The notes below the pieces were generated by a model. The model saw only the letters and a program-made list of their open reading frames with translations. It searched no databases and was not told where the DNA came from. From an uncultured Acidobacteriota bacterium (GTDB lineage Bacteria > Acidobacteriota > Vicinamibacteria > Vicinamibacterales > UBA2999), in contig CAWDJL010000003.1 of assembly GCA_963802675.1 (NCBI GenBank), positions 265,158 to 329,157 on the forward strand: a stretch of 64,000 nt of DNA. The letters run 5' to 3'. This document shows, piece by piece, positions 2,610 through 43,256 of the stretch; position 1 is the stretch's first letter, and the number at the start of each line of letters is the position of its first letter. The position numbers and the translations under genes were made by a program.

Positions 2610-2873
2610 CGAGGCTCCGCCTCGCTACGAAACGTTGTTGGTTTTGCCCCGCTCCGCGGGGCGAGGAGCCTTGAAGGCCGTTGGAAGGGCTTGACTCAAA
2701 TGAACAGATGTCTCGGCCTTCAAGCCTCCTAAACAGTATGAACAGCGGCGTGCGCGTGAATCGCGGGGTACGACTGGCCTTAGCGGCCTTTATGGTGCTG
2801 GTGTGCCCCGACGTGTCGGCCAGCCAGGAACCGGTCACGAGTGTCAAACCGCTGACAGCAGCGTCGGCCTCCA

Positions 2874-6296: not shown

Positions 6297-8593
6297 CAGC
6301 AGTTCCGAACAGACAGTCGATCTCAAGCCCGGCGGTACAATCGAGTCCAATCTCACTTTTGACTCGACCGAGCGTGTTGCTCGAGTCTCGCTGCTCGCCT
6401 CGACCGCACCTGCCTTATTTACCGCGACCATTTTCGTCAGTGCCTCGCTGCTGTTCCTGGTGCAGCCCATGTTCGCCAAGCTCACGCTGCCGCGGCTGGG
6501 CGGCAGCCCCGCGGTCTGGAACACATGCGTCCTGTTTTTCAAGCGACGCTTCTGCTGGGTTACCTCTATGCGCATTTGTCCACTCGCTGGCTCGGTATCA
6601 GACGACAGTCGGCCGTCCATGGAGCGTTGCTGCTGTTGCCTCTTCTCAGTCTGCCCATGAGTGCTGGGGAGGGACAGCCCTCGGCCTCGGAGAGTCCAGT
6701 GTGGTGGGTTCTGCGGACCATGACACTGCACGTTGGTCTGCCATTTTTCGTGGTCTCCACCACGGCGCCGTTGCTGCAGCGGTGGTTTGCGTCGCTGCCG
6801 ATTGCCTCCGCCCGCGATCCGTATTTCTTGTACGCGGCGAGCAATCTGGGCAGCATGCTCGCGCTGCTCGGTTATCCGTTCGTTCTCGAGCCGGCGATTG
6901 GGACGCGATCACAGACTGTCTGGTGGTCGGTGGGTTACGCGTTGCTGGCCGTGCTGATTGCGTGCTGTGCGTTCCTGACCCGCTCGTCGGCGAGCGATGC
7001 CCTCGCCGAGTCAGGGCAGACTGACGAGTCACGTCGAAGCGCCGACGATGTGGATGCGGCTCTCATGGCTGGTGCTGTCTTTCGTGCCATCGAGCCTGAT
7101 GCTTGGCGTCACGACGCACGTCTCCACCGACGTCGCACCCGTGCCGCTGCTGTGGGTGTTGCCACTGGCGATGTATCTCGGGACGTTCGTTTTGGCGTTC
7201 TCATCAAGGGAGTGGATCGCGCAACGGTGGCTCACCAGAGTGCTTCCCCTGCTCGTTTACTGGATGCATCCTCACGATCCTGATGAACGCGCGCTGCGTG
7301 GTGGCTGATCCCGCTCCACCTAGCACGTTCTTCGTGGCAACGTTGATGTGTCACGGTGAGTTTGGCGCGTCGACGCCCGCATCCACGCTACCTCACCGAC
7401 TTCTACATCTGGATGTCGCTGGGTGGCGTGCTGGGTGGCGTCTTCAACAGTCTGGTGGCGCCGCAGCTGTTCAACAGTGTCCTCGAGTATCCGCTGGTAC
7501 TCGCGGTCGCCGCATTGATTCGTCCGTCGCCGCAGTACCGCGGAGATGCTCGCGAATCGATCAGGCTTCCTCCTCGGCTTTCCCGGATTCGTCATCGCGT
7601 TGGTGCTTGCATTCTGGGCTTCGGGAGGGGCACCGAGCATCGGGATCGAGCCGTTGTTGTTTGCCTGTGCCAGTCTGCTGGCGATCGCCTTCATGTTCGC
7701 CAATCGCACGGCGCCGTTCGCGGTCATGGCGCTTCGGGTTCGTCGCCATGATCGTGTTGAGCGGGCCTGCTGGATCGGGTCGCGTGTTGTTCGCTGATCG
7801 CAGCTTCTTCGGCGTGCATCGCGTCCTCGAGTCAGCGGACGGGAGTTATCACCTTCTGCAGCACGGCAGCACGACGCACGGGCGTCAGGAAATGTCGGCG
7901 GTCGATGGCTGTGCGCCGACTGGCTATTACCATCCTGAGAACCCAATCGGCCAACTGTTTGCCAGGGTCAACAGGCCGTTCCAGCGGGTGGCGCTGATCG
8001 GTCTCGGTAGTGGGGGGCTGGCCTGTTACGCGACACCAGGTGCCCACTGGACCTTTTATGAAATCGATCCGCTCGTGGAGCACATTGCCCGCGATCCTCG
8101 CTATTTCACCTTCCTTCGCAACAGTCCGGGTGAGGTTGACGTGGTCCTCGGTGACGGACGCCTGATGCTTCAGCAGGCGCCGTCGGGGGTGCACGATCTG
8201 ATCATCCTGGACGCCTTCAGCTCCGATGGAATCCCGGCGCATCTCCTGACGCGGGAAGCCATGCAGCTCTATTTGTCCGCGCTGGTTCCGGATGGCGTTA
8301 TCGCCGTGCACATCTCGAATCGCTATCTTCATCTCGAGCCGCTCGTGGCCGCTTTGACAAGCGAGTTGGGTTTGTTTGCGATCGCGAACCGCGACGTGCA
8401 GATCGGCGAGGTTGCGCGTCAGAGAGGACGCCTGCCATCGCACTGGGTCCTCGCATCGAGAAATCGCCAGGCTCTCGACGAGTCTCGTGGGCTTGCCGGG
8501 TTGGCGAACGCTCGAGAGCAGCGCGAATGTTCGGCCATGGACCGACGATTACTCGAATATCCTCCAAGTTCTGACTCCGCGCTGAGGCGTTGA
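6283..8593 (+). pseudogene. fused polytopic membrane / spermidine-synthase-like (class I MTase fold) protein; about 6 frame junctions
   Basis: Pieces in all three frames join as QPMFAKLTLPRLGGSPAVWNTCVLFF|QATLLLGYLYAHL ... MCHGE|LARRRPHPRYLTDFYIWMSLGGVLGG ... RVALIGLGSGGLACY ... LIILDAFSSDGIPAHL. Junctions lie near 6541, 7030, 7255, 7362, 7555 and 7735. Confidence 0.7.
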
Positions 8594-15933: not shown

Positions 15934-16116
15934 CGGCTTTCTGTAATCCTGCGCAATTGCGCCTCACGTGCGGCAATCTTGTGAGGGCGGCCTGCTCTAA
16001 CCAGCCCGGAAACCCTTTGGGTCGGCGCTGCGAGGGCTCCGTCTACAAGGCCCGTACCGGCCGCAAGCCCCACAGCACGTATCGGCCCCAGGCGGCCGAC
16101 AGTTTAGCTGGACTAT

Positions 16117-17772
16117 ATGACCAGGTTTGCGAACAGCCCTTGCGAAAGGTGCCGATACATTAGGCCGCTGATGCTCTTCGGGTCTCGCCCGGCTACTCTG
16201 GGCTTCGCTGCCATCCTCGTCGCGCTGGCGGTGGCCTACGGAACGTTCTGGTTGCCCCGGCCGCCGGAATCTTCCACGACGACGGCGTCTATCTGGTCAC
16301 CGCAAAGGCTTTAGCCGAGGGCAGCGGTTATCGCATCGTCAGTTTGCCTTGGGAGCCGGCACAGACGAAGTATCCAGTCCTCTTTCCGTTTCTGCTCTCT
16401 CTCGTCTGGCGCGTGTTTCCCGTATTCCCTGAGAACTTGCCGTTTCTTCGCCTCGTCCCGCTAGGCTTTGCAGTCGTCTGGTTGGCGCTCTCGTGCCGGT
16501 TACTTCGTGCCGTGGGTGAGACCAGGGAACGTGCCATCCTGGGGCTGACCGTCGTGGCAGTCTCGCCGTGGGTGGTTTTTGTCTCGACCGCAACGCTCGC
16601 GGAGACAGTGTTTGCGACCCTGGTAGTAGCGGCCGTCCTGCTCCTGGTCCGTATCGATAGCGGCGATGTCCGGCGCCTTGCCCCACTGGGTGCCGGCGTG
16701 TTGATGGGTGCTGCGATGCTGACGCGCGCGGCAGGCGCCGCTGCCGCCCTCGCCGGTGTCCTGGTTCTGATCCTCCGCCGACGCTGGCGAGCCGCCGTTG
16801 AATACGCCTTTGGCATCCTGGTCATCTATCTGCCATGGTTGTTGTGGGTCGGCAGCCAGCCACCGCATCGTCGGCGATCGACACGTTCTATGAAGCGTCA
16901 ATCTACGGTAGCTACAACGTGATCACAGACTATTCGTGGGCGGACAAGCTGACAGTCGTCGGGCTCAATGCGATCGACCTCGCGTCGATTGGCCAGTTCT
17001 GGGGCCTCGCCAATGGCACTTGGGCAGGGATCGCCGTCGGGCTCGTCGGCACAACTCTGGTTCTGCGCGGTCTCTGGCGGGCTCGGACCAACCCGATCGC
17101 GGTGATTGTCGTTATCTATCTCGGTATGCTGCTGCTCTTTGTCTGGCCGCCGTTCCGCTACGTGGTGCCGATCATGCCGCTCCTGGTTTGGTTGGCCATC
17201 AAGGGGGCGGGAACACGAATGCGCAGTTGCCGAGGGATTGGCGTTGCTGCTCTTCGTGACTGGTAGTTTGGCACTTACTAACACGACGCTTGTGGTTCAT
17301 CGGAAGGGAGGGACCTGGTACAACGCCGGTGGCGTCGATGATTGGAACGAAATGCGGGCGCAGTACCGACTGGATCGCCCGCGAAACCCCGAGAGACTCG
17401 GTGATCGCAGGTGTGCATGACCCAACCTATTACCTGTTTACCGGACGAAAGGCGCTACGTCCGTTCAGTTTCAAGCCGATCCTGCTCTCTTACAACGTGC
17501 GTCGAAGCCCGGAGAATCCCTTTGGGACCGCCACCGATCTTCGAGATCGCCTCATGGCGATGAAGGCTGATTACCTCGTCCTCACTCCCCGTGACGGGGT
17601 GGAGCGATTGGCAAACGAATTACTCGCGCTCGCGCCCGGCAGTCTCTCGCCGGTGTTCGGGAATGACTCCTCTGGGCACTTGATCTACCGCGTGAATCGT
17701 GTGGTGCTGTCGAACCGCACGAGCGAGGAAATGGGGTTGTCCAAGCCGAGCACGGCGTCGATCCTCAATTGA
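16117..17772 (+). pseudogene. ArnT/PMT-like (GT39/GT83-type) polytopic glycosyltransferase; about 4 frame junctions
   Basis: Pieces join as FHDDGVYLVTAKALAEGSGYRIVSLPWEPAQTKYPVLFPFLLSL ... many TM helices ... C-terminal soluble part DPTYYLFTGRKALRPFS ... ADYLVLTPRD. Junctions near 16255, 16860, 17215 and 17365. The start may be ATG 16171. Confidence 0.6.
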
Positions 17773-19166
17773 GCTGGGTTTCCTGCCGCCGGTACAGCGT
17801 CCAGTCAATACCCACCAGCTCCGAGCTCGGGTAATACCGCCAGCGGATGTATAGGTTCCCCCGCCAATCGCGATAGTGCTCGCCGTCGCCGCGCCCCTCG
17901 CGGATGATGAAGTCGGCTCCGGCAGGCTCCGTCGCTTCGTAAAGCCGGATGCGCCCGCTTCCGAGCACATTGGCGTAGTGATTGACCATCAGCCGTGTCC
18001 GAAACTGCTCTCCCGGCTTGTGACCGGCAGAGCGCACCGTCACGGGCTCGCGCGGCGCGGCTTCCAGGATGTCTGCAAGCGCAGCTTGATACTGGCCCCT
18101 TCCGGTTGACGCGAATTTCGCGAGATGAACCGTGTTGCCGGTGCCGTAGAGCGCGAGTAGGCCGATGGCGAGCGCGCGAGATACGCCCTGGCGGCTGAGC
18201 AGAAATGCGAGCCACTGCGAGATCGGCAGCAGCGCCAGCGCCACCGGAATCAGCAAATAGCGCGGCATCAACACGCGTGGCTGGGTCACAACGATAAACA
18301 GTCCGGGCACGACGAAGCAGCACGCGACATACAGGAGCCATCGGTCATCCTGACGCGCCTTCAGCCATGAGACGGCTGCCACGAACACGGCAGCGCTTGA
18401 TGCCGCCGCGATCCAGACCGTCGGCGCGTCCATGGCTCCACCAACCATCAGCGAAAGCGTTTGCGTCGCCACTTCGAGGAGCCAGTAGGGCGGCCCGCCA
18501 CCAATCCTCATTCCGCGCAGGCTTACCAGGTAGAACACCCCGATCGCTATGCCGGGCACGACGAACGCGCGCAGCGTGATGCGCGTTGCTTTCCGGACCG
18601 AGCCGGTAATCCGTTCGGCGTGCGAGTCCGTCCACAGCAACATCCCGATGAATGCGAGGAGGAAGCTCGCGTGCGCCATCATGGCCAGCACGCTGGACAC
18701 CCAGAAGCCGGCAGCATCCGACGAGCGCTGGGTGTCGCAGTAGCGCAGCAGCCACCAGAGGGCCAGCAGGGTCAGGCAGACGGCCGGGGCGTACCCGCGC
18801 GCCTCCGACGAGTAGTACGCCAGCGGGAACGACCAGGCAAAGACGAGCGCCGTCAGCCCGCCGTTCAATGGCCCGTCGCGTGCGCCAATCCGCCAGGCGA
18901 TGACCACGCTCGCGAGACCCGACACGAACGCGAGGAGACGGTACAAGGCCACATGCTGGCCCGATCCGAGCAGGAAAAGCCACAGCGCCGTTGAGATGGT
19001 GGTTGTTATCGATCCGCAGCGTGAGGAAGATGTCGGTCCATGACTTCAGGGCGAGCACGTCATTGAGCGACCAGACTTCATCGACCCAGAAGTCGGTGAA
19101 CAGACCTGGCAATCGGACGCCAACGGCCAGCAGTCCGACGATGGCAACGACGAGCGCAGACTTCAT
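17765..19166 (-). pseudogene. ArnT/PMT-like polytopic glycosyltransferase; one +1 junction near 18990
   Basis: N-terminal piece MKSALVVAIVGLLAVGVRLPGLFTDFWVDEVWSL...DNNHHLN continues in the 395-aa ORF frame (LWLFLLGSGQHVALYRLLAFVSG...). The C-terminal soluble domain ends ...WRYYPSSELVGIDWTLYRR. Its 3' end overlaps the convergent gene by 8 nt. Confidence 0.6.
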
Positions 19167-19193
19167 GTCGTGGTCGTTTCGGGCAGAGCACGA

Positions 19194-20255
19194 TCAGGAT
19201 GAACGCGACACATGCCTCGAGATGTAGGCGGTCCAAACTCGAAATGACGGCAGGGGTCCACGCCTTAGCACCATCCACAAGCAGGGTAGGTAGCAGCAGA
19301 TGGTGATTACCTGACCGCGCTGGTGGTAGCCTTCCAATACAGAGCTGTCAGGCCATCCTCCCGAGATGAATGGCGTAAGAAACAAGCCCAGGGCGAGTAT
19401 CAATCCCTCAGCCCACGTCTTCGGAATCAAGAACAGTGGCAAGGCTTCGTAGGGGCCAGGGTTGATGGGCAGGCAGCTCATCGCGAGCAGTAATCGCCCC
19501 TCACTCGTGCGCCATCGCCATGCCGCCAGCAACAGCAGCGGGCCGCCCCAGCGCATGACCGGCGGCACCAACTGTGCGGTATCGGCCATTGTTGGCAGCC
19601 AGTGCGTGACCCAAGTCGGCCACACCAGAAACGAAACCGTGATCAAGAGCAGCCCCGAGACGGCAGACTTCCACGAGGGATAGGCGAACCACAGCGCGGC
19701 CCCCATCGTCGGCTTGCATACGAGCAGGAAACCAAGCCATGGCAGGAAGACCGCTCCGATCAGCGCAGGTGTCCACTGCACCGCCAAGATGACCCACAGA
19801 ATCCCGAACGAGGGAATCGCAAGCAGTGCCGGTGACCACACGCTCGTGCGCGTCAGTGCCCAGGTCATCAGCCCCACGCCCAACCCAACGAATAGAGGAT
19901 CGGCCACGCGGATCGGGAGTAGCGCGAACGGAGCCGCCGCGATCAACGCGGTGAATGGGTAGAGCAATTGATTGGGGTAATCGTGGGGGCGGCCGGGTCC
20001 GACGAACGTGTAGGGATCAAGGCCGTTAGCAAACGCGCGCATCCCCGCCCAAACGATCGAGAAGTCGGAGGGCCAGCGCAGCGGTGCACTACGGTGCCAG
20101 AAACAGAGTGCAGCGGCCACGCAGGCGACGCCGAGTGTGAGGGCGACGCGTTGTGCGCGGTGGTTCATGTAGCTATCGCCCGCTCGATCCGACGACTTCG
20201 GGTCAGCATGGATGGGGTCCATTTTGTCGGTGCCATGCAGGGTATCGGCGCTCAT
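19194..20255 (-). CDS. GT87/DUF2029-like polytopic membrane protein
   Basis: Intact 353-aa ORF. SDFSIVWAGMRAFANGLDPYTF ... LLYPFTALIAAAPFALLP ... CKPTMGAALWFAY. Paralog of 20427-21426. Confidence 0.6.
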   Translation of the reverse strand: MSADTLHGTDKMDPIHADPKSSDRAGDSYMNHRAQRVALTLGVACVAAALCFWHRSAPLRWPSDFSIVWAGMRAFANGLDPYTFVGPGRPHDYPNQLLYPFTALIAAAPFALLPIRVADPLFVGLGVGLMTWALTRTSVWSPALLAIPSFGILWVILAVQWTPALIGAVFLPWLGFLLVCKPTMGAALWFAYPSWKSAVSGLLLITVSFLVWPTWVTHWLPTMADTAQLVPPVMRWGGPLLLLAAWRWRTSEGRLLLAMSCLPINPGPYEALPLFLIPKTWAEGLILALGLFLTPFISGGWPDSSVLEGYHQRGQVITICCYLPCLWMVLRRGPLPSFRVWTAYISRHVSRSS

Positions 20256-20426
20256 GGAGCCGTGTGTGAGCGGTAGGCTCTAGGAAGAGCTGAAGGCTGA
20301 CGTCTCAGGCGCCGATCCCCTGTGGTGCTGGCTCTGGCTGCAAGACCTCCACTTCGTCAACTCTCGAGCCCAATGGACTCTCATGAGCGACAAAACCACG
20401 GCAGATTAGACGGCAGCGTTCATCCG

Positions 20427-21426
20427 TCAGAGCCGTTCCCGCTGTTCGCGTCGTGTCATCACCATCCACAGACAGGGTAAGTACAACAGCAATACGATCC
20501 ATTGACCCATTGCCTCCCGTTCCGCCAAGTATTGAGCTCGGTTGCTCCATCCGAGCATCGGCCCGGTTGCCCACGGCACGATCAAACCCACGGCCGCGGA
20601 GCTCAAGAGGAGTAGCAACGCGTGCTCGAATCGTCGAGGAATCAGGAACAACGGCAGGGTTTCGTAATGAAAGTGCGTCTGCGGAACGCAGGCAAGTGCC
20701 ACGAGCAGCCGAGCATCCCATCGACGCCAGTGGAGAAGAGCCAGAAGGATCGACAGGACCACCCCAAAACATGACTGGCGGTTTGAAATGCACTCCTTCT
20801 GATAGCAGCCCGAGCCATCTCTCGGGCCAGGTCGGAAGAAGGGCGATTGAGAGAACTAACAGAACGACGCTGCCGACGAGCGCCCGCTTGGACGGGAATG
20901 CCAGCCACAGCGCCGCGCCAATTGTTGGCTTGCAGGCAAGGACAAAGCCCCAGACGGGAAGGAGCGCGCCACCAATCATCAGGCCCGGCCACTGTGAGAG
21001 TCTAACTGTGGTGATGAACGCCGGAGCGAGCAAGGCGAACCAGGCATAGCGAAACTCCGCTCGCGACGTGATCGCCCAAAGAAATATCGCTGTTCCCATG
21101 CCGACAAACCACGCGTCGGGAAACGGCAAGAAAGAAAAGGGAAGTGCCAATACCACGGCGGTGAAGGGATAAAAGACAGGAAAGGGGCCGGCCCTTACCG
21201 AATAGGGATCGCCGCCGCGCCACCAGACTTCCGCGGCCTGGTTGAGCTGGGCGAAATCGGAATTCGTGTCTAGGTGACTCAGGGCGGCGACCACGGCCGC
21301 GAGAAGGCTCACCCCGATCACGATCCCGAGTCGTCCGCGGCTCCAGGTGTCCGCTAATTGCGCCGGCCGCGCGGGCAGGAGGTGGCGCCACGCGCCAACT
21401 GACGAATCGCGAGGCGAACTGGTCAC
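20427..21426 (-). pseudogene. GT87/DUF2029-like polytopic membrane protein, paralog; one +1 junction near 20765
   Basis: SDFAQLNQAAEVWWRGGDPYSV ... VFYPFTAVVLALPFSFLP ... CKPTIGAALWLAF ... FWGGPV|LSILLALLHWRRWDARLLVALACVP ... continues in the 20427-20762 frame. Collinear with 19194-20255. Confidence 0.6.
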
Positions 21427-21544
21427 CGGCTAATCGCTGCGGCAGTTATCGGCCATGGACGCCAGCCAGTTTAGGCGCATTCTAGGGAGAAGAGCTGAAG
21501 GTGGAGCGCTCAGACACCGATAACGGTGCTGCAAGGGGGGCATC

Positions 21545-22380
21545 TTGGATCGCGTCGGCAAGTCAGTCATCGCTGTGTTTCTAGCAACCGTCGCTGCGGT
21601 GGCCGCGAGCAACCTGCTCGAGGGCGCGCTCCGTCGCCGACGTGATGCGGGCCAGCGATCCTCGAGTCCGGCAACGCCTCTTCGATCTCCTCCAGCCGGT
21701 TTCGCTCGCTAACTGCAAGCTCGAGCGGTTTGGCGAAACCAATGACGGCGGCTACCTGATGTGCGCGAACCTGTTGTCCGAGCTGCAGGGGGCCTACTCG
21801 TACGGAATCTCGGGCTACGACAAGTGGGGCTGCGACACCGCGACGACAGCCGGCGTCCGGCTGCATCAGTACCGACTGCTTCGACTCGCGGCAACCGGCT
21901 TGTCCCACCGGTGACACCGTGTTCCACGCCGAGTGCGTGGCAGGTGTCACGAAGACCGAAGACGGGCGGCCATTCGACACCATCATGAACCACCTGCAGA
22001 GGAATGGCGACTCGGGCAAGCGTATCGCCATGAAGATGGACGTCGAGGGCGCCGAATGGGAATCGCTGCTGGCCGCGCCCGACGCGGTGCTCGAGAGTAT
22101 CGACCAGCTCGCCATCGAGTTCCACTTCGTCCACGAAGAGCGCTTCGTCGAGGTGGTCGAACGCCTGAAGCGTTTCTTTCACGTCGCTCACCTGCACTTC
22201 AACAACGTGAGCTGTCTCGGCGGTATCGAGCCGTTTCCGACGTGGGCCAACGAGGTGCTGTTCGTCAGCAAGCGGATTGGGAAAGTCGACGCGGAGCGCC
22301 GGGTCACACTGCCTCACCCGCTCGATGCCCTCAACAACCCACGTCTTCCCGATTGCACCGCTGCAACGCCACCACCGTGA
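21545..22380 (+). pseudogene. FkbM-type methyltransferase with N-terminal TM anchor; two +1 junctions (about 21640 and 21873)
   Basis: TTG 21545 gives the TM helix SVIAVFLATVAAVAASNLL. Then LLQPVSLANCKLERFGETNDGGYLMC ... AYSYGISGYDKWGC ... VRLHQY|DCFDSRQPACPTGDTVFHAECV ... KMDVEGAEWESLL ... LAIEFHF. The stop overlaps the next start (GTGA). Confidence 0.65.
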
Positions 22381-24028
22381 GTAGGCTGCCACCTTCAGTG
22401 GCCGACATTCGCAAACCGGACGTGCACCCTGGCGCGCCTCCGGCGGAAACCCTCGCCGCTGGCCCAGGGAGCTCGCGAACTGAAGCCCTCAGCATCCTGA
22501 CCGCGGCAGTCGTCGGTGCGCTGTGCGCCTACGCGATGCGCAAAGTCGACCCCGACCTGTACGGTTACCTTGCCTACGGCCGCCTGTTCGTGGAGCAGGG
22601 CCGGATAGCGGTCGAGGATCCGTTTGCCTACACGTCGACTGGCTCGACATGGGTCGCGTTCGAGTGGCTCGCCCAGCTGACGCTGTGGATTGCGTACGAC
22701 ACTGCCGGCCCGCTGGGTCTCATCGGGCTCAAGTGTCTCCTCGGAGGAATCGCGGTCTACTTCGTGTACGACGCGGTGCGCGTCGCGTCCGGCCGCGATT
22801 TCCACTGGCTGCCGGTGTTCGGCTTCGTGACAGCGAATTTCTCGCGCTATTTTATCTTCCGGCCGCAACTCTTCACCTTCGCGTTCTTCGCGCTGTTCGT
22901 CGCGGTGTTGCTTCGTCATCTAATGCGCCGGCGGACGTCACTCTGGGTCCTGCCCAGTCGTCATGCTGGTATGGGCGAACAGTCATGGAGGGTTTCTCGC
23001 CGGCCTCGGCGCAATCGGTCTGTTCGTTGCGTTGCGAATCGGCGAGAACGCTTCGGGTGGGGCGCGCGGGCCGGACCCTGTTGAAGGGAACCAGGGCGTT
23101 GTGGCTGACGCTCGGCGTCTGCACGGCCATCACCCTGCTGAATCCGCGCGGCGTGGACCTGTGGCGCTACGTGCTCACCGAACTGACGCACTCGACGAAT
23201 CGCCAGTACATCGGCGAATGGGGTCCGGCGCATAGCAGCGGCGACATGTGGTCGTTCGCCGCGTCGATCGTGACGTGCCTGTGCCTGGCGCTCGGGGGGT
23301 GGATCTCGCAATGGCGGCGGCCGCCATCACCCGGCCCCGTACCGGGCCACTTCGTGCTCAGTGCCGTCCCGCTGGCGGTGATGGCCTTCCTGTCGGTGCG
23401 ACACACGCCGATCCTGGCCATCTGGAGTGCTCCGGTGCTGGCGCTGACCGCTGCTCAGGTGCGCGGCTCGCGGTCGGGGGCCAGTCGTGTGCTGTCGATG
23501 GGGCTGCTGTGCGCCGCGCTGACGTCGGTGCTCATTACGATGATCTTCGTGGTGCAGAATCCGCGTCCGGCGATCGCCGCGTCAGGCAACGTGCTCGGCC
23601 CTCTGCACCCGTGCCAGGCCGTGGGCTTCATGCGCGAACAGAGGCTCACCGGCAATGTCTACGTTCCTCTGCCGTGGGGCTCCTACGTCACCTGGCATCT
23701 CTATCCGGCCGTGCGTGTGTCGATGGACGGCCGCAACATCTCGCTTTTCCCCCGCGACATGGTGCGCGAGAGCCTCGAATACTACACGTCGAGCCACCCA
23801 GACCTCGAGGCGCCGCTCCGCTACGATACGGACTTTCTCCTCGTGCGCTCGAACTTCTCGGGGCTGGATGCGCTCGAGGCGGACACGCGATGGACCGCGA
23901 TCCATCGCGACAGCGACGCCGTGTTGTTCAAGCGCGTCGATGGACGCGACCGCCTGCCCGCCGCGAGCTCCGAGAGAGCAGCCGCAGAGAGCACGCCGCG
24001 CGAGGCGTGTCCCGCATTCCTGCAATAG
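22377..24028 (+). pseudogene. uncharacterised polytopic membrane protein, paralog C of the 11835/13322 family; two +1 junctions (about 22960 and 23040)
   Basis: DPDLYGYLAYGRLFVEQGRIAVEDPFAYTSTGSTWVAFEWL ... VWANSHGGFLAG ... NPRGVDLWRYVLTE ... GNVYVPLPWGSYVTWHLYPAVRVSMDGRNISLF ... Same architecture as paralogs A and B. Confidence 0.6.
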
Positions 24029-24071
24029 CTGCTGGCTTTCTGGGTAGCTGTGAGTTGGCTGACGCTGGACT

Positions 24072-24872
24072 CTATCGCCTTGATGCCCTCCGACTTGTCG
24101 GCGATTCAAAGTAGAGGTTGTTGGGGTCCATTCGTAGGTACTTTCCGACGACGATGTATTGGTGATCGGCGAAGTAGTCGATGATGGCTTGTCGGACGTC
24201 AGGATGTGATTCGATACACACGAACGCTGGTTGGAATCGGTCGATGTCGAATCCCTTGAGCGCCTTGGGTTCGGAGAGTTCGATGTCCATCGACATGAAG
24301 TCGAGCTTATCGACTCCTGCCTGTTCGAGCGCCACCGTGAGCGTCGTGGTCGGCACGGTTCGAGCAACCCCCGGGGTCCCTTCGCGAACGGTGAACTCGC
24401 GATTGCTCGACGCCACCAGGCTGTTGCTCGGTGGCACGAACAGCGAGACGGTCGTATCGGGCGCATCGGAGGCAAACATCGCGACGAACTTGGTGCGCGG
24501 TCGATTGAGTCGGTAACCTTCGGCGAACTCACTGAGTGCTTCGACTGCGACTCCAGACCATCCCAACTGCCTTTCGAGGTAATAGGTGTTGCTCTCGTTG
24601 ATGTGGTGGTTGGCGCCGACGTCGAGGAAAACGCCATCGCGACGGTCCTGGAAGAAGTCTCTGATGACCCATTCCTCGACGTGACGGGAGTAGTGCTGTG
24701 GCCCGTACTTCTGCTGGATGGGGCGCAACTCATGCAGCGCCGCGAACCCGAAGTAGGTGGCGCTCCGGAGTTCCCGCTGGCCGCTATCGTACGTGAGCCT
24801 CCATGTGACGACGGCGCTGAAGATAGCCACCAGAGCGTAGGGAATGACCCAGTCACGAGGCTTGTTGCGCAT
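24072..24872 (-). CDS. FkbM family methyltransferase with N-terminal TM anchor
   Basis: Start chosen at ATG 24872 (MRNKPRDWVIPYALVAIFSAVVTW) to avoid overlap with the upstream gene. VFLDVGANHHINESNTYYLERQLGWSGVAVEA ... LDFMSMDIELSEPKAL ... FVCIESH. Confidence 0.7.
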   Translation of the reverse strand: MRNKPRDWVIPYALVAIFSAVVTWRLTYDSGQRELRSATYFGFAALHELRPIQQKYGPQHYSRHVEEWVIRDFFQDRRDGVFLDVGANHHINESNTYYLERQLGWSGVAVEALSEFAEGYRLNRPRTKFVAMFASDAPDTTVSLFVPPSNSLVASSNREFTVREGTPGVARTVPTTTLTVALEQAGVDKLDFMSMDIELSEPKALKGFDIDRFQPAFVCIESHPDVRQAIIDYFADHQYIVVGKYLRMDPNNLYFESPTSRRASRR

Positions 24873-24958
24873 AGGGTTCGTTCGCTTCCAGAACCGGCCC
24901 GTACAGATCTCGGTCGGACCAACGCCGGACGTTAGAGACGAGCCCGTCGAGCCTTTGC

Positions 24959-25345
24959 TTAACTGGCTCGTAGAACGACTTGATCGCCGACGTGTGTCTC
25001 GTTGCCGAGTGCGCCGGCCGCAAGCTCGATGGTCGCGAACGCGCGCCACGACACGGCGATACGACGCCGCGGGACGGCGTGACAGACCTTGAGAACGGTG
25101 CCGTCACGCGCGACGAAAACCAGATCGATCGCAAACCGCATCCCAAACGTGTGGACCGCGTTGCAGGGCGCGATGATCAACGCGAACCCCTCGGGCATGC
25201 GGTCGTGCTTCAGCAGGCCAGTTCGCCGGCTCGCGGAATCGACTGCGGCGGTCGGGTTCGAGGCGATCACCTGGCCCGTTCGCGTGTTCACCAGCGTGTG
25301 AGGCGCGACCGGAAGCTTCAGGAGCGGTGTCAGGAACGACGCCAT
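24959..25345 (-). CDS. DUF192 domain protein
   Basis: Intact 128-aa ORF. RRTGLLKHDRMPEGFALIIAPCNAVHTFGMRFAIDLVFVARDGTVLKV ... ATIELAAG matches my memory of the DUF192 (COG1430) pattern. Confidence 0.65.
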   Translation of the reverse strand: MASFLTPLLKLPVAPHTLVNTRTGQVIASNPTAAVDSASRRTGLLKHDRMPEGFALIIAPCNAVHTFGMRFAIDLVFVARDGTVLKVCHAVPRRRIAVSWRAFATIELAAGALGNETHVGDQVVLRAS

Positions 25346-25481
25346 CGGTTCTACGTCATCTCTATCTAGGACGCGATCGAGGGAATGGCTGCTGAGCCAC
25401 GTGTTTCGTGTTCACATGCACAGCTCGCCCTCCTACCTTGCGGTCAGGAACGATCTCCCCAGGCTCGAGCCGGGCGATGGC

Positions 25482-27363
25482 TCATTCAGTCCGAGCTGTC
25501 CGGGTGGCTGAATCGTCAACGGGAGCAGGCGTGCGTTTGCGCCCGCCGAGCAGGGCGCGAACCCAATCGGCGATTGCAGCCAAGCCGTAGCCTATGCTGA
25601 GCGCCCACATCGGCCAAGTCAGCAGTCCCCAATATTGATTGAAACTCTGCCCGGTCGTCATAAAAAGGCCGATATAGGTCGCGGCGGACCATCGCATCAA
25701 GACAGGTGACGAAGAGCTTAGGATGCTGGCGACGATCGCGACCAGTGCCAATGCCGCCCACTGGGGCGATGCCAGCTGAGACACTAAATGCCACCGTACG
25801 GCAGCGGTGAGAAAAGTCAGACCAGCAAACTGTGTCCATGGTCGCGTATGACTTAGGTCAGTCGGCAATCGGTACTCCCAGACGTTCGTGAGATGCATCC
25901 CGTAGTAAAGCCCGTACAACGCCCCTCCCAAAAGCCAGGCCATCACTTCCCGTCTTCTTCCGCCGACCCCCGCCAGCGTCGCACAGACCAGGCAGTAGGG
26001 ACCGGCAAGCTCACGGACGAACAGCGCGAGTAGGCCAAAACAGATTCCCAGCGATGGCCATCGGCTCAAATAGGCGCAAATCGACAGGCCGATGAGGGCT
26101 CCCGCCCACGCTTCGCCCAGGACGATTGCCGCAGCGAACGGTGCTGTGAATACGGCACCGCATTGCATGAACATCGCAGTGAGAAACGCAACTGGTGGCA
26201 GCTGTTCGCGCGCGAGTATCACAAAAGTCAGTGTGCAGAGTGCGAGAGCGATACCGATCCACAGCATGACCACTGCGCGTTCAGACAAAACTGACAGGGA
26301 AGACATCAAGAGCGGAGTCCGCCAGTTGAACGGGTGGGACAGCGGATAGCCGTAACGGCGCAGAACGTCCCCATAGGTCTCGTAATATGAGGCCCCACTC
26401 CTCATCTCGGTGACGATGGTTTGAAAGACCGCGACGTCGCCAGGCCCAGGCAGCGGAGCAGCAGAGGTGGTGGAAGAATCAGCCGTCAACGCGACCGGTC
26501 TCGAGCCTTGTGGTTCTGGGGCTTGTCGGTGCGGCCCCGCCGTCTGGCAGTCAGGCGCCTTGGGATTGTTCGGCGCATCCACCGCCGCCGGGCCGGCGGA
26601 GCGGCTCGCCGGGAGCGAGTCGTGGCCAGCCGCTTGTTCACGAACAGGACTTCGTACGCCCACGCGGGAAACGGGTCGAGACCCGGCCGGCAACTGTAGT
26701 TGTTGAAATGGAGATGCGCCACATGAAACCAGCGCTTCAACCGCCGCACGACCTCGACGAACTGAGGCTTGTCGACATAGTGCATCTCGATGGCGAGCTG
26801 ATCGATGCGATTGAGCGTCTCGTCTGACGCGTGCAGAAGGCTGTCCCATTCGGCGCCCTCGATGTCCATCTTGACGACGAGCCGCTTGCGGGCGTCGCCG
26901 TTCTTGGCGAACTGACCCTCCATCGAGTCGAAGATCCGACCGGACTCGGTAAAGGACTTGGCGGCGACGCATTCGGGGTGAAACTCGGTGTCCCCGCTGG
27001 GGCATGGCTTCGGCAGGCGGGGATCGAAACAGTCGGTACTGATGTGCCCGGACCTTGAGCTGCGTTGACACCTCGCATCCCCAGCCGTCATAACCCGAGA
27101 TGCCGTAGGAATACGCCGACTGCACGTCCCCCAGCAGGTTGCCGCACAGGATATAGCCACCGTCGTTCTCCTCACCGAATCGCTCGAGCTCACAGTTCGC
27201 GAGCGCGACGGGCTGGAGCAGCTGTGAACAACATCTCGCGGACCTGGCGAGGCTCCGAGGGAATAGGGTCTTCAACCGTGGTCGTGAGCCGCAGCCCGAT
27301 CACGGCGGCAGCCGCCGCCCCGAGGATCGCGGAGAGAGTCCCGGCTCGTCCCAGATCCGTCAC
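25482..27363 (-). pseudogene. FkbM-type methyltransferase (paralog of 21545-22380) running without a stop into a polytopic membrane domain; three frame junctions
   Basis: GTG 27363 gives MTDLGRAGTLSAILGAAAAAVIGL...EPRQVREMLF|QLLQPVALANCELERFGEENDGGYILC...VRAHQY|DCFDPRLPKPCPSGDTEFHPECV...KMDIEGAEWDSLL...EVLFVNKRL|GHDSLP...VDAPNNPKAPDCQTAG. The frame then stays open through about 340 aa of TM-rich sequence (FNWRTPLLMSSLSV ... WGLLTWPMWALSIGYGL) to 25482. Junctions near 27245, 27035 and 26630. Confidence 0.6.
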
Positions 27364-27403
27364 AAGCGTATTCCCAATCTCATTGCGAAGTTATGATCTC
27401 CCA

Positions 27404-30874: not shown

Positions 30875-32818
30875 GTGATCAGATTCCTCGCGCTGGCCGC
30901 CGTGGCTGGCGTGCTGGCCGTGGAAGGTGCCGCGCAGGGTCCGTCGGCTTCGACGACGGATCCGCGGGTGGGACTCAAGCCCGGCTTCCGTGATGCGGGC
31001 GTGGCGGCGCGCAACATGGAGCTGGTGGCGAGCATGCCCAAGCCCGACGGATTCTTCGATCCGAAATCCCCCGAAGGCATCGGAAGCGCGCCGGAGCCTC
31101 CGCCGGCAGCGGCGGGCACTCCGGCGCCGGAAACGCCGAGCACGCCCCCCCAAACGACACAGTCACCTGCGCCTACGACCACGCCGGCCGCAAATGCAAC
31201 ACCAGGCGGTCCCGGAGGCCCCCCAGGAGGAGGCGGTGGCGGTGGTGGTGGCAGCGGACTGAACTTTGCCAACTCCGACCTCGCGTTCTCGGGCAATCAC
31301 CTCTTCATGGGCAACTTCAACGGGTTCAATGCCTATGACGTCGAGAACACGCGACGACCGCGACTGCTGGCGTCGATCGTCTGCCCGGGCGGTCAGGGCG
31401 ATGTGTCAGTGCACGGCAACCTCTTGTTCATGTCGGTCGAGCAGACTCGTGGTCGCGTGGACTGCGGCGTCGAGGGTGTTTCGTTGGCGGTGAGTGCGGA
31501 GCGCTTCCGCGGGGTTCGTATCTTCGACATCACCGACATCCGCAAGCCAAAGCAGGTGGCAGCGGTGCAGACCTGCCGTGGGTCGCACACGCACACGCTG
31601 GTGACATCCCCCAACGACAAAGAGAACATCTACGTGTACGGCTCGGGCACCGGCATGGTTCGATCGGGCGAAGAGCTCGAGGGATGCTCGGGCGGCAAAC
31701 CCGAAGAGGACAAGAACACCGCGCTCTTCAGCATCGACGTGATCAAGGTTCCCCTCGCCGCACCTGAAAAGGCCGCCATCGTCGCGCGCCCGCGTATCTT
31801 CGCCGATGAGAAGACCGGCGCCCTCGCGGGTTTGTGGGCCGGTGGCGATCACGGGCCAGGCACGCAGCGCACATCGATGACGAACCAGTGTCATGACATC
31901 ACGGTGATGCCCGAGGCGGGCCTGGCGGCAGGCGCGTGCTCGGGCAACGGCATCCTGCTGGACATTTCCGATCCGGTGAAGCCGGTGCGGCTCGATGCGG
32001 CCAGCGACAAGAACTTCGCCTACTGGCACTCGGCCACGTTCAACAACGACGGCACCAAGATCGTCTTCACCGACGAATGGGGAGGCGGGACGCGTCCGCG
32101 CTGCCGCGCCAGCGATCTGCAGACCTGGGGCGCCGACGCCATCTTCGACATCGTCGACAAGAAGCTGCGGTTCGGCAGCTACTTCAAGATGCCCGCGGCG
32201 CAGACCGACACCGAGAATTGCGTCGCCCACAATGGCTCGATCATCCCGGTGCCGGGGCGCGACATCATGGTTCAGGGCTGGTATCAGGGTGGACTGTCGG
32301 TGTTCGACTTCACCGATTCGGCCAACCCCGTGGAAATCGCGTTCTTCGATCGCGGTCCGATCAGCGCTACGCGGCTCATCACGGGCGGGTTCTGGTCGAC
32401 CTATTGGTACAACGGTCACATTTACGGCGCCGAGATCGCACGCGGTGTGGACATCTTCCGCCTGACGCCAAGCGAATACCTGTCGCAGAACGAGATTGAC
32501 GCGGCGACGCAGGTGCGCATGACCGTGTTCAACGCGCAGCAGCAGCCCCGGGTGACTCACCCGGCAACGTTTGTCGTCGCGCGCGCATATCTTGATCAGT
32601 TGTCGCGCAGCAAGGCGCTGCAGCCCGAGCGCGTGGCGGCGATCAAGAGCGCCATCGATCGCGGCGACCGGCGGTCGCCAGGACGCGCGGATCTCGATCA
32701 GCTCGACACGCTGGCGGGGCAGCTCGAGAAGGACGCGAGCGCGGCGACGGGCCGCGACGCGACGCGCATGGGTGCGCTGGCCTCGACGATCAAGGAGCGG
32801 GTCTCGCGGCTTCGATAG
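30875..32818 (+). CDS. LVIVD-repeat beta-propeller surface protein, paralog 1
   Basis: GTG start. Signal MIRFLALAAVAGVLAVEGAAQG. Pro/Gly low-complexity linker including GGPGGPPGGGGGGGGGSG. Propeller core GNHLFMGNFNGFNAYDV ... GNLLFMSVEQ ... CHDITV ... WSTYWYNGHIYGAEIARGVDIF. Confidence 0.75.
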   Translation: MIRFLALAAVAGVLAVEGAAQGPSASTTDPRVGLKPGFRDAGVAARNMELVASMPKPDGFFDPKSPEGIGSAPEPPPAAAGTPAPETPSTPPQTTQSPAPTTTPAANATPGGPGGPPGGGGGGGGGSGLNFANSDLAFSGNHLFMGNFNGFNAYDVENTRRPRLLASIVCPGGQGDVSVHGNLLFMSVEQTRGRVDCGVEGVSLAVSAERFRGVRIFDITDIRKPKQVAAVQTCRGSHTHTLVTSPNDKENIYVYGSGTGMVRSGEELEGCSGGKPEEDKNTALFSIDVIKVPLAAPEKAAIVARPRIFADEKTGALAGLWAGGDHGPGTQRTSMTNQCHDITVMPEAGLAAGACSGNGILLDISDPVKPVRLDAASDKNFAYWHSATFNNDGTKIVFTDEWGGGTRPRCRASDLQTWGADAIFDIVDKKLRFGSYFKMPAAQTDTENCVAHNGSIIPVPGRDIMVQGWYQGGLSVFDFTDSANPVEIAFFDRGPISATRLITGGFWSTYWYNGHIYGAEIARGVDIFRLTPSEYLSQNEIDAATQVRMTVFNAQQQPRVTHPATFVVARAYLDQLSRSKALQPERVAAIKSAIDRGDRRSPGRADLDQLDTLAGQLEKDASAATGRDATRMGALASTIKERVSRLR

Positions 32819-33267: not shown

Positions 33268-35161
33268 ATGCGAAACGCAGCAACTGGATTTCTGACTGCC
33301 GCGGTCCTGGCCTCGATGGTGATCGCCGTCGACACGCAGGAGCGTGCCGGCAATGCGGCGACGAGTGATCCGCGGGTCGGCCTCAAGGGCGGCCTTCGTG
33401 ATGCGGGCGTGGCGGCGCGCAACATGGAACTGCTGGCGAACCTGCCCAAGCCCGACGGCTTCTTCGATCCCACGGCCCCGGCTGGTGCGGTGAGCGCGCC
33501 CGAGCCGCCGCCTGCGGCCGCGGGCGCACCGTCAGGCCCCACCGCCAATCGGCCGGAGGGCGCTGCCGGTAACGCCACGCCGCCTGCACCGCCGCGAGGT
33601 GGAGGTTTCACGAACTCCGATCTCGCCTTCCGCGGAACCAATGTCGTCGTGGGGAACTATCACGGCTTCAACACCTACGACATCGAGAACGCGCGCAAGC
33701 CGCGGCTGCTCGCCTCGGTCGTCTGCCCCGGAGGTCAGGGCGACGTGTCGATCTACGGCAACCTCCTGTTCATGTCGGTCGAGCAGACGCGCGGGCGCAT
33801 CGACTGCGGCGTGCAGGGTGTGACCGCGCCGGTGAGCGCTGAACGGTTCCGAGGCATTCGCATCTTCGACATCACCGACTTGAAGAAGCCGCGACAAGTG
33901 GCGGCGGTGCAGACTTGCCGTGGGTCACACACTCACACGCTGGTTCCGGACAAGAACGACAAGGCGAATCTGTATGTCTACGGTTCGGGCACGAGCTCGG
34001 TGCGAGCGGGTGAAGAGCTCGAAGGATGCTCTGGACGTGATCCGAAAGAGGATCCCAACACCTCGCTCTTCAGCATCGACGTGATCAAAGTGCCGCTCGC
34101 CAATCCCGAGAAAGCGGCGATCGTGAATCGCCCGCGCATCTTCGCGGATCCGAAATCGGGTGCCATTTCGGGCTTGTGGCAGGGCGGCGATCACGGGCCA
34201 GGAACGCAGAGCTCGCGGATGACCAATCAGTGTCATGACATCACGGTCCTTCACCGAGATCGGGCTGGCCGCCGGTGCGTGCGCGGGCAACGGCATCCTG
34301 CTCGACATCTCCGACCCCGTGAACCCTGCTCGCCTCGACCATGTCACCGACAAGAACTTCGCGTACTGGCATTCGGCGACGTTCAACAACGATGGCACCA
34401 AGATCCTCTTCACCGACGAGTGGGGCGGCGGCGGCCGTCCCCGTTGCCGCGCCACCGACCTGCCGACCTGGGGCGCGGACGCAATCTTCGACATCGTCGA
34501 CAAGAAACTGCGCTTCGGCGGCTACTACAAGATGCCGGCCGCACAGACCGAGCAGGAAAACTGCGTCGCGCACAACGGGTCGCTGATTCCGGTGCCGGGC
34601 CGGGACATCATGGTGCAGGCGTGGTATCAGGGCGGCGTGTCGGTGTTCGACTTCACCGATTCCGCCAACGCGCACGAGATTGCGTTCTTCGACCGCGGGC
34701 CCGTCTCGGACAAGGAGCTCGTGTCCGGCGGTTACTGGTCGACCTACTGGTACAACGGGAACATCTACGGCGCCGAGATCGCGCGCGGCCTCGACGTCTT
34801 CCGATTGACGCCGAGCGAGCACCTGACGCAAAACGAGATCGACGCCGCCACGCTGGTTCGCTTCGAGGAGTTCAACTCGCAGCAGCAGCCGCGCGTCACG
34901 TGGCCGGCGACGTTTGTCGTCGCGCGCGCGTATCTCGATCAGCTGACCCGGAGCAAGGCGCTGCAGGCGGATCGAGTGACGGCGATCAAGAGTGCCATCG
35001 ACCGTGCCGACCGGCGGTCTCCCGCTCGCGGCGATCTCGACGCGCTCGATACGCTCGCGTCGCAGCTCGACAAGGAGGCTGGTGCGGCCACGGGCCGCGA
35101 CGCCATGCGCATGCGATCGCTGGCGTCGACGCTAAAGGAGCGGGTCGCTCGGCTTCGATAG
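33268..35161 (+). pseudogene. LVIVD-repeat beta-propeller surface protein, paralog 2; one +1 junction near 34252
   Basis: Collinear with 30875-32818 throughout. MTNQCHDITV|..EIGLAAGACAGNGILLDISDPVNPARL continues in the 34235 ORF frame and ends ...LKERVARLR* like paralog 1. Confidence 0.75.
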
Positions 35162-40033: not shown

Positions 40034-41078
40034 TTGCGAATCGCACAGATCGCACCGCTCAGCGAGAGCGTGCCCCCCCAGCTTTACGGCGGCACCGAGC
40101 GGGTCGTGGCATTCCTCACGGACGAACTGGTTCGTCAGGGACATTCCGTCACGCTCTTTGCCAGTGGCGACTCCCGAACGTCAGCGAAGCTCGTCCCGAT
40201 CTGCCCGACCGCGCAACGCCTTGCCGGCTGTCGCGATTACCTCGCCGGTCTCGTCTTGCAAATCGAAGAAGTCGCGCAGCGCGCGCAAGAGTTCGACGTC
40301 CTGCACTTTCACATCGCCCAACTGCATTTCTCGATGGCCCGCCGGCTCCGGACGCCGCACGTCACGACGTTGCACGGCCGATTGGACATGCCGGAGCTGG
40401 TGCCGCTCTACCGGGAGTTTTCGGATGTCCCGGTCGTCTCGATTTCTGACGCGCAACGAATTCCGCTGCCCGATGCGGCCTGGCTTGGCACCGTGTATCA
40501 CGGCCTCCCGCGCGAGCTGTTACGGTTCCATCCGGAAGCGGGGCAGTATCTGGCGTTTCTGGGGCGAATCTCGCCAGAAAAGCGAGTGGATCGTGCCATC
40601 GCCATCGCCACCGCGTGCGGCTGGCCCTTGAAAATCGCGGCCAAGATCGATCCCGCTGATCGGGATTACTTCGAGCAACACATCCGATCGCTGCTCGATC
40701 ACCCGCTTGGTCGAGTTCATTGGCGAGATCGGCGAATCGCAGAAGAGCGAGTTTCTTGGTCGAGCGAAAGCTCTGCTCTTTCCGATCGATTGGCCCGAGC
40801 CGTTCGGGCTCGTGTTGATCGAAGCGCTCGCGTGTGGTACTCCGATCGTCGCGTTTCCCGGCGGGTCGGTGCCGGAGATTCTGGAGGACGGCGTGACTGG
40901 ATTCATCGTTCAGGATCTCGATGAAGCCGTCGCAGCCACTCGCGAGATTGAGCGGCTCGACCGCGCCGCGTGTCGCTCATCGTTCGAACGAAGATTCACG
41001 GCGTCCCGCATGGCGTCCGATTACGTGCGACTCTATGAGCAGCTCATCGGAAAAGCTGACACAGACCTTGTCGCCTGA
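40034..41078 (+). pseudogene. family 4 glycosyltransferase (GT4); one +1 junction near 40706
   Basis: TTG start. MRIAQIAPLSESVPPQLYGGTERVVAFLTDELVRQGHSVTLFASG ... FLGRISPEKRVD ... LDHPL|VEFIGEIGESQKSEFLGRAKALLFPIDWPEPFGLVLIEALACGTPIVAF. Confidence 0.75.
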
Positions 41079-41091
41079 TCGGGAGCCCCTG

Positions 41092-43256
41092 ATGGCAGAA
41101 ACAGTTCGCCTCGACGAACAGTTCTACATCGTCGCCGAAGCCGAGCGTTCGACCACGCCGCTTCGCGTGCTGAAGCACGGCGACAGCTTCGCCGTCTTCG
41201 ACACGCATGGTGACATCACGCCAGAAACCTCGACCGAGCAGGGGCTGTATCACAGCGGCACGCGTTTCCTCTCACGGCTCGAGCTCCTGCTGGGTCGGCG
41301 CCGCCCGTTGCTCCTCAATTCGATGATCAGCGAGGACAACGTGGTGTTCACGGGCAATCTCACGAACCCCGATATCCTGCGCGACGGCCACATCATCGTG
41401 TCTCGCGGGGAAATCCACATCCTGCGCTCGCGTGTGCTGTGGAATGGCGGCTACGGCGAACGCATTCGAATCTCCAATCATTCGCTCCACCCGATCGAGG
41501 TGCCCCTCACGATTCATTTCGACGCTGATTACGCCGACGTGTTCGAAGCGCGCGGGTCGAGCCGGCCCAGGCGGGGCCGCCGCCTGCCGGACCGTCGCGG
41601 TGCGGAGTACGTCCTCGGCTACATCGGCCTCGATGGCGTCGAGCGGCGGACGATTGTCCGCTGGAGCCAGCAGCCGGACCGGCTGGAGGAAGGGTCGGCG
41701 AAGTTTCTGGTGACGCTCAATCGGCATGCGGGAGCAGACGTGGAATTGAGCGTTGGCTGCGAGATCGACGGCACGCCCGCGGTCACGTATCACTTCGGCG
41801 ATGCCGTGGCACAGTCCAAGCAGCGAGTGGCTGACTCCGAAGTTCAGGAGTGCGTCGTTTCGAGCTCGAACGAGGCCTTCAACCGGTGGCTGCGCCGGTC
41901 GTCGGCCGACCTGCGCATGATGACGACCGAGACGCCGTACGGTCCCTATCCGTACGCCGGAATTCCGTGGTTCAGCACGCCGTTCGGTCGTGACGGTCTC
42001 ATCACCGCGCTCGAGTTGCTTCCGCTGGCGCCTTCGGTCGCGCGCGGCGTGCTCACGTTTCTCGCGGACACGCAGGCCACGTCCCGATCGGATCAGCAGG
42101 ACGCCCAACCCGGAAAGATTCTGCACGAAATGCGGAGTGGCGAGATGGCCGCGCTCCGAGAGGTGCCGTTTGGTCGCTACTATGGCAGCGCCGACGCCAC
42201 GCCGCTCTTCGTCATGCTGGCACACGCGTACTTCGAGCGAACGGGGGACGCCGGTTTCATCGACGCGTTGTGGCCGCACCTGCTGGCTGCACTCGATTGG
42301 ATTACCGACAACGCCAATCGGCACCGCGATGGCTTCGTCACCTACGAACGACGAAGTGAGACGGGGTTGGTTCATCAAGGGTGGAAGGACTCGGTACGAT
42401 GCCGTCTTCCATAGCAGTGCCTCACTTGCCGAGCCGCCCATTGCGATGTGCGAGATTCAAGGATATTGCTACGCGGCCTGGAAGGGCGCCGCGCAACTCG
42501 CCACCGCTCGCGGCGATCACAAGGTGGCCGCTCGGTGGGACGCGAAGGCGGAACGGCTGCGGGCCAATTTCGATCGTGCCTTTTGGTGTGACGAGATCGG
42601 CACCTATGCGCTGGCGCTCGATGGCGAGAACCGTCCGTGCGAGGTGCGCACGTCCAACCCTGGCCATGCCCTGTTTGCTGGAATCGCTTCGCCGGAGCGT
42701 GCCGCACCGCGTTGCCGAGACGCTGCTTTCGGACACGTCCTTCGCGGGGTGGGGTATCCGAACTGTTGCGGCCGGCGAAGCGCGCTACAACCCCATGTCG
42801 TACCACAACGGATCGATTTGGCCGCACGACAACGCGGTGATCGCCTCAGGGCTGGCGCGCTACGGCTTTCGTGAGGCGGCTTGTCGGATCTTGAACGGCA
42901 TGCTCGACCTCAGTGCCGCCGTCGATCTCAACCGGTTGCCGGAGTTGATCTGCGGATTTCATCGGCGAGAAACCGAGTTCCCGACACTGTATCCGGTGGC
43001 GTGCGCACCACAATCGTGGGCGGCTGGGGCGGTCTTCATGATGCTCGCGGCCTGCCTTGGTCTTCGGATTGACGCCGCGGCGCGGCGCATCACGTTGACG
43101 CGCGCGCTGCTGCCCGAGTCGGTCGAGTGGCTGCGCCTCACGAACCTCTCGATCGGCGATGCGTCGGTCAATCTCCTTCTCAGTCGGCATCCCTTCGATG
43201 TCGGCATCACGGTTCTTCGTCGAGACGGGGATGTGGAGATCGTGGGGGTGAAGTAG
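41092..43256 (+). pseudogene. amylo-alpha-1,6-glucosidase / glycogen debranching enzyme-like (GDE_C) protein; two +1 junctions (about 42394 and 42706)
   Basis: ATG 41092. GIPWFSTPFGRDGLITALE ... HQGWKDS|(Y/V)DAVFHSSASLAEPPIAMCEIQGYCY ... SPERAA|RVAETLLSDTSFAGWGIRTVAAGEARYNPMSYHNGSIWPHDN ... ACAPQSWAAGA. Confidence 0.75.

Follow-up and report, generated by a model that had tools for sequence, protein, structure and literature searches.

The subject of this analysis is a stretch of 64,000 nucleotides (nt) from an uncultured Acidobacteriota bacterium (contig CAWDJL010000003.1 of assembly GCA_963802675.1, positions 265,158 to 329,157 of the forward strand; hereafter the window), in which two diverged genes of a methyltransferase-like family, paralogs A and B, change reading frame at the same nucleotide. 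The surplus C found at this junction in both genes is very probably a k-mer-specific insertion in a Nanopore consensus, by which CAGTAC^GAYTG was written as CAGTACCGAYTG in an error-rich contig. Most likely the C is not a real genomic feature and the underlying biology is ordinary; in vivo both genes are almost certainly undisrupted, each forming one open reading frame (ORF) of ~277-283 amino acids (aa). A systematic base-calling error tied to a k-mer was one of the three explanations proposed in an earlier sequence-only reading of the window, and it is now supported by the DNA of orthologs, by the confinement of other carriers to the Microflora Danica (MFD) project and by a third copy of the critical 12-mer in the window.

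The shared frame junction of paralogs A and B

The two paralogs were compared with loci from other assemblies, among them L002, a 1.3-Mb ENA contig that is syntenic with the window over 3-28 kb and carries three intact paralogs, L085 (ENA ERZ25039591 contig_82073), and two carriers of the surplus C, L028 and L020, which are described further below. The features of the two genes are as follows.

21545..22380, plus strand: paralog A, a transmembrane (TM)-anchored, FkbM-like methyltransferase-family protein of ~277 aa when repaired, lying in three frames in the assembly
~21620 and 21873, plus strand: 1-nt insertions in paralog A, from the gaps in alignments with L002, L028 and L085
21620, plus strand: insertion private to copy A (CTGCTC[G]AGG), after the TM anchor and before the catalytic core; not in L002, L028 or L085
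21864..21878, plus strand: the 15-mer CATCAGTACCGACTG in paralog A; the pair of C's at 21872-21873 includes the surplus base
26530..27363, minus strand: paralog B, ortholog of L002 19112-19963 (283 aa) and 95 % identical to it; the 3' end is approximate
~27224, 27035, 26620 and 26600, minus strand: 1-nt insertions in paralog B, from gaps against L002, three-frame translation and tblastn
~26600, ~26620 and ~27224, minus strand: three insertions private to copy B, all absent from L002
27030..27044, minus strand: the same 15-mer in paralog B, as reverse complement; the surplus base is at 27035-27036

The 15-mer has one exact copy per strand in the window. The junction within it reads CAT CAG TAC (HQY) and GAC TG. 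(DC), with one C surplus between the two parts. DNA identity between the cores of paralogs A and B is 69.6 % over 595 bp, in line with the roughly 70 % estimated by eye in the sequence-only reading. Mismatches between the copies concentrate on third codon positions, with 30 of 56 falling there upstream of the junction (upstream frame) and 60 of 120 downstream of it (+1 frame), which agrees with the purifying selection claimed for both paralogs. Comparison of copy A with the intact homolog P0001 by tblastn gave three collinear high-scoring segment pairs (HSPs) in frames 2, 3 and 1, with 76-93 % identity, and the pieces part precisely between Y109 and D110. On both sides of the junction the amino-acid identity to intact orthologs is 89-93 % (tblastn). 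The positions of the k-mer, the periodicity of the mismatches and the tblastn alignments all place the frame switch, as had been claimed, inside the same 15-mer in both paralogs and attribute it to one surplus C.

The 15-mer had also been singled out as perfectly conserved. It is indeed identical in A and B, but it has no special status, being one of three exact runs of at least 15 nt (19, 15 and 15 nt), each of which lies over an invariant protein motif (HQYDC, DQLAIE and EGAEW). The further claim that independent random indels would not hit the same nucleotide in two paralogs was upheld by our estimate of the probability of such a coincidence (p ~0.01, assuming two single-base insertions in copy A and four in copy B, in ~850 bp each).

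Ortholog DNA without the surplus base

The repaired protein, with one C removed, was used as the query in a homolog search that returned 2,903 homologs. The best 120 of the 2,903 are each read in one frame and come close to full length (~240-415 aa, for the most part 265-290 aa; 92-100 % query cover; identity up to 93 %). HQYDCF is invariant and read in one frame throughout an alignment of 14 homologs with the two repaired copies, and its usual coding is CAT/CAC CAG TAC GAC/GAT TG. In the homologs the N-terminal TM anchor is continuous with the core, and it is this continuity that brings to light the additional break of copy A at 21620.

At the DNA level, CATCAGTAC-GACTG occurs without the surplus C in all four genes of L001 (one gene) and L002 (three genes). 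L001 is a Logan contig (SRR29483049) whose protein is 93 % identical to repaired copy A. The junction reads CATCAGTACGACTG in the orthologs L001, L002 and L085, the last of which is 96 % identical to the window and also lacks the C. The most direct evidence for an artefact is the comparison of L001 with the carrier locus L028, which belongs to a Microflora Danica Nanopore metagenome-assembled genome (MAG): aligned over 1,586 bp, the two share 99.05 % identity and differ by 14 mismatches and a single gap, and that gap is the surplus C, so that near-identical DNA from an independent assembly is without the variant. Orthologs that lack the base and yet encode HQYDCFD in one frame had been named in the sequence-only reading as evidence that would argue against recoding, and such orthologs are present in L001, in L002 and among the aligned homologs.

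Locus L085 deserves a remark of its own. Its HQY/DCFD site is correct, and the same gene has other 1-nt insertions at 1246, 1368 and 1439, as a result of which the called 'protein' is an identical 153-aa C-terminal fragment.

Carriers of the surplus C in other genomes

The pattern CAYCARTAYCGAYTGYTTYGA was scanned for in one genome per GTDB species and in the JGI metagenome collection. The GTDB-species scan gave 35 loci, of which 28 are chance matches in unrelated, non-coding-looking contexts and seven stand in the context of the family, defined as ..GYD.WGC....HQY before and DCFD..P.C...FH.EC after the break. All seven family loci (L005, L010, L020, L028, L030, L032 and L037) come from GTDB species-representative 'MFD*.bin' MAGs with Flye-style contig_N names, six from Acidobacteriota and one from Verrucomicrobiae. 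Their junction is CAGTACCGA[C/T]TG in every case, and in 5/7 the surplus C is the sole frame break of the gene. The same pattern in the JGI metagenome collection gave 47 loci and no family member, and many of the intact family homologs originate from JGI. Within this family the variant was found, across the GTDB and JGI scans, only in assemblies of one technology.

The Microflora Danica long-read MAGs were produced from Nanopore reads only; Guppy (super-accurate mode) did the base-calling, Flye the assembly and a single Medaka round the polishing, and the short reads in that pipeline served for coverage binning only and not for polishing (PMC12313526). The authors of that study looked for Nanopore-associated errors and saw signs of them, together with lower coding density, in low-coverage MAGs (PMC12313526).

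The surplus C at 21873/27035 is present in L028 and L020 as well. The window's other insertions were not found in L002, L028 or L085, nor in L020 where its alignment is clear; L020 is without the ~27224 insertion, and over 26600-26626 its alignment has too many gaps for a judgement on the remaining two insertions of copy B. From the closest relatives (L020, 92-97 % identical) and the error profile it is inferred that the window itself is a long-read-only Nanopore metagenome contig.

Recurrence of the 12-mer outside the methyltransferase family

The 12-mer CAGTACCGACTG, which is contained in the junction of both paralogs, occurs a third time in the window.

17361..17372, plus strand: third occurrence of the 12-mer; the gene around it, at ~16100-17767 (plus strand), is unrelated and membrane glycosyltransferase-like (GT87/PMT-like)

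This copy too sits at a +1 break, with ...EMRAQY before and DWIARETPRD... after it, and the coding-frame Viterbi path switches at 17366/17367. A skip of one base repairs the protein, which then aligns without gaps to an intact paralog in L002 (...MSDQIDWINANAPRD...). At least three further frame changes lie in the same gene, near 16240, 16860 and 17210. The un-inserted 11-mer has zero occurrences in the window. Recurrence at the same k-mer in unrelated sequence was thus observed at 17361-17372, and since this third +1 break lies in an unrelated gene, the break follows the k-mer and not the gene family.

Several broader or additional candidates were tried and discarded. A third methyltransferase paralog in the window was not detected by tblastn, the third 12-mer belonging to a different gene. 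An error linked generally to GTAC found no support, as the window has 145 GTAC sites and the breaks are only at the three CAGTACCGACTG sites; the density of GTACC is 1.14 per kb in the window vs 0.67 per kb in L002, and most GTACC are far from frame changes. The shorter motif CAGTAC^G was flagged at 1621 and 7533 (CAGTACCG) by a local codon log-odds test with a resolution of only ~+/-30 nt, and both sites were rejected. At 1621 the downstream +1 reading is not protein-like. At 7533 a break near 7562 fits better, judging by the 656-aa protein of L002, the tblastn HSP boundary at 7562/7564 and a blastn gap. No motif common to the other insertion sites was evident by eye, and to our knowledge there is no convincing match between the k-mer and Nanopore adapter sequences.

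Proposed origin of the surplus C

The observations are best explained if a true CAGTAC-GAYTG is often written with the extra C in Nanopore-only consensus sequences. The invariant HQYDCF would put the same error-prone k-mer in every paralog, and because the motif forces the same k-mer, both paralogs would break at the same nucleotide. The error probably arises at base-calling or at the consensus step, and one route to it may be an insertion that recurs in the reads and persists where coverage is low. If the C is an artefact, the sequence obtained from Illumina reads would be CAGTACGACTG.

Such an error would resemble the known systematic errors of long-read-only bacterial assemblies from Oxford Nanopore R10.4.1 data in that an additional base linked to one k-mer turns up repeatedly in unrelated genomes (here from one Nanopore-only pipeline), is absent from independent near-identical assemblies, and splits ORFs. 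It would differ from the published Nanopore cases, which mainly concern methylation-related errors and substitutions, in being a single-base insertion outside a homopolymer, at CAGTAC^GAYTG. Homopolymer indels are the other classic type of Nanopore error. No description of the CAGTAC^GAYTG k-mer was found.

Several points weigh against an error of this kind. The un-inserted k-mer is correct three times in L002, in L085 and in the second paralogs of L028 and L037, so the error is not deterministic. L002 and L085 may come from the same project as the MFD MAGs, judging by their neighbouring ERZ accessions (ERZ25039555 and ERZ25039591) and contig_N names. If they do come from that project, coverage is probably a factor in the error in addition to the k-mer. 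The shorter forms AGTACGAC and GTACGACT are present un-inserted in the window, and a context of ~9-11 nt must be assumed.

A variant of the same idea traces the hot spot to DNA modification within or beside the GTAC core. This is considered rather unlikely; were it true, and were the modification common to soil Acidobacteriota and Verrucomicrobiota, the recurrent error would record a widespread epigenetic mark rather than a mere fault of the software.

For practical purposes the finding is a data-quality warning, as the extra C stands in several of the public Nanopore-only MAGs that represent species in GTDB. Members of a conserved gene family are thereby cut into two ORFs at one and the same codon, which mimics conserved recoding. 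When long-read-only MAGs are scanned for frameshifts, pseudogenes or 'split genes', a technology control is needed before identical breaks in paralogs or orthologs are given a biological meaning.

Programmed frameshifting, real lesions and chance

The sequence-only reading leaned towards a conserved programmed +1 event, in which the ribosome skips the C at CAG-TAC-C-GAC and one full-length methyltransferase is made from two frames in both paralogs. The agreement of the breaks to the nucleotide between paralogs that are both under purifying selection, a third +1 break at the same 12-mer in another gene and the recurrence of the surplus-C form in seven other MAGs all speak for it, and the arrangement is like that of prfB (release factor 2, RF2), where one surplus nucleotide parts two conserved frames that jointly encode a full-length conserved protein. 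The junction departs from prfB chiefly in that the extra base is not conserved in orthologs: close orthologs, one of them (L001) 99 % identical to a carrier, are without the C and encode HQYDCF in one frame. It is also without a slippery P-site codon, an in-frame stop, a demonstrably rare A-site codon and a Shine-Dalgarno stimulator. Three defining features of programmed +1 sites were tested and none was found. At sites of the prfB or Ty type the P-site tRNA must re-pair in the +1 frame, and here, with UAC in the P site and ACC as the +1 codon, tRNA-Tyr cannot do so by standard pairing rules. CGA is not rare, at 9.5 per 1000 codons in the trusted ORFs. The two copies have different sequences in the 20 nt upstream, with no GGAGG-like element and no shared Shine-Dalgarno-like one. 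All the carriers found belong to one Nanopore-only project and span two phyla, with no family members among the JGI matches, and the same genes contain other, unshared frameshifts with no common motif, each of which would need recoding too. Programmed frameshifting is accordingly left with practically no probability.

A real mutation would mean that the genes are pseudogenes and that the lesion either passed between the paralogs by gene conversion or reflects a mutational hot spot. Each copy does have several frame breaks, as decaying genes have, but the codon periodicity kept in the substitutions and the 89-93 % amino-acid identity around the junction do not fit decay. The local gene conversion of an old lesion that had been put forward is not supported, given the shortness of the identical tract, just 15 nt, and flanks that in each copy match its own ortholog (L002, L020 or L028), leaving no conversion tract. 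The lesion would moreover have had to originate separately in eight or more genomes from two phyla, and in Nanopore MAGs alone. In conserved coding DNA the window has 14 insertions vs 1 deletion, almost all outside homopolymers, and an insertion bias of this kind is atypical of natural bacterial indel spectra. A real lesion is therefore held to be very improbable. Two independent random consensus errors that fell on the same base by chance are given scarcely any probability. The contig is certainly very error-rich, with ~2 insertions per kb in the cluster, but the coincidence estimate of p ~0.01 covers the two paralogs only, before the 12-mer at 17361 and the seven MAGs are counted, and none of the window's other insertions recurs in L002, L028 or L085, or in the clearly aligned parts of L020. 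The preferred explanation thus remains the k-mer-specific consensus insertion.

Other frameshifts in the window

The surplus C is one of many frame breaks in this contig. Over 7.2 kb of conserved coding DNA aligned with L002 (87-95 % identity) the window has 14 insertions (13 of 1 nt and one of 2 nt) and one deletion, and most of these insertions are outside homopolymers. The codon-usage Viterbi path makes 39 same-strand frame changes, ~27 of them without a nearby stop codon as the explanation. In all, the 64 kb hold roughly 30 frameshift-like breaks (about 27 or more), and those that can be set against a reference are nearly all single-base insertions outside homopolymers. The ortholog of the 656-aa protein of L002 is spread over at least five frame changes. 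Examples of such breaks are given below.

6600-8580; 12377/12743/13039; 18984; 22957; 23075; 34240; 40700-42700; 48645: example breaks

The breaks are unevenly spread, and long ORFs remain intact at 49739-53086 (1115 aa, 3.3 kb), 30875-32818 (647 aa, 1.9 kb) and 2856-4844 (2.0 kb). Local coverage or strain heterogeneity might lie behind this unevenness, which is a guess.

Two regions show the breaks particularly clearly. Tandem paralogs at 30875-32818 and 33268-35161 (plus strand) encode secreted proteins of ~650 aa, and the second is broken near 34240 (...TNQCHDITV before and ...GLAAGACAGNGILLDISDP after the break). At 40034-43256 (plus strand) a region resembling a glycosyltransferase and an amylo-alpha-1,6-glucosidase (glycogen-debranching-like) runs through four successive frames, with changes near 40700, 41050, 42345 and 42700; a single gene, or two, probably disrupted by insertions of this type would account for it.

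The methyltransferase family and its neighbourhood

Paralogs A and B had been labelled 'FkbM-type'. Matches to this family do exist, but all of them are sub-threshold and restricted to the C-terminal part of the proteins. With Pfam PF05050 (FkbM) the scores are 17.5 and 16.9 bits vs a cut-off of 22.7, and with NCBIfam TIGR01444 the score is 15.6 bits vs a cut-off of 37.7. The likeness to FkbM consists of these weak matches in the C-terminal third of the paralogs and of the PF05050 assignment carried by the homologs P0007, P0021 and P0104 in precomputed annotation; most of the more than 2,900 family members have no Pfam annotation. The family differs from FkbM in its scores under the curated cut-offs, in its own N-terminal TM anchor and in its many invariant cysteines. 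In the 16 aligned sequences six cysteines are invariant and two nearly so, and the N-terminal TM anchor is present.

The paralogs belong to a cluster (window 16100-27400, L002 8400-20000) in which methyltransferase paralogs are found together with several paralogous polytopic membrane proteins, the latter GT87/PMT-like according to precomputed Pfam annotation in L002. The same cluster contains a canonical-looking FkbM gene at 24072-25049 (minus strand) and a DUF192 gene. Judged by this gene content, it looks like a cell-envelope glycan modification cluster of Acidobacteriota.

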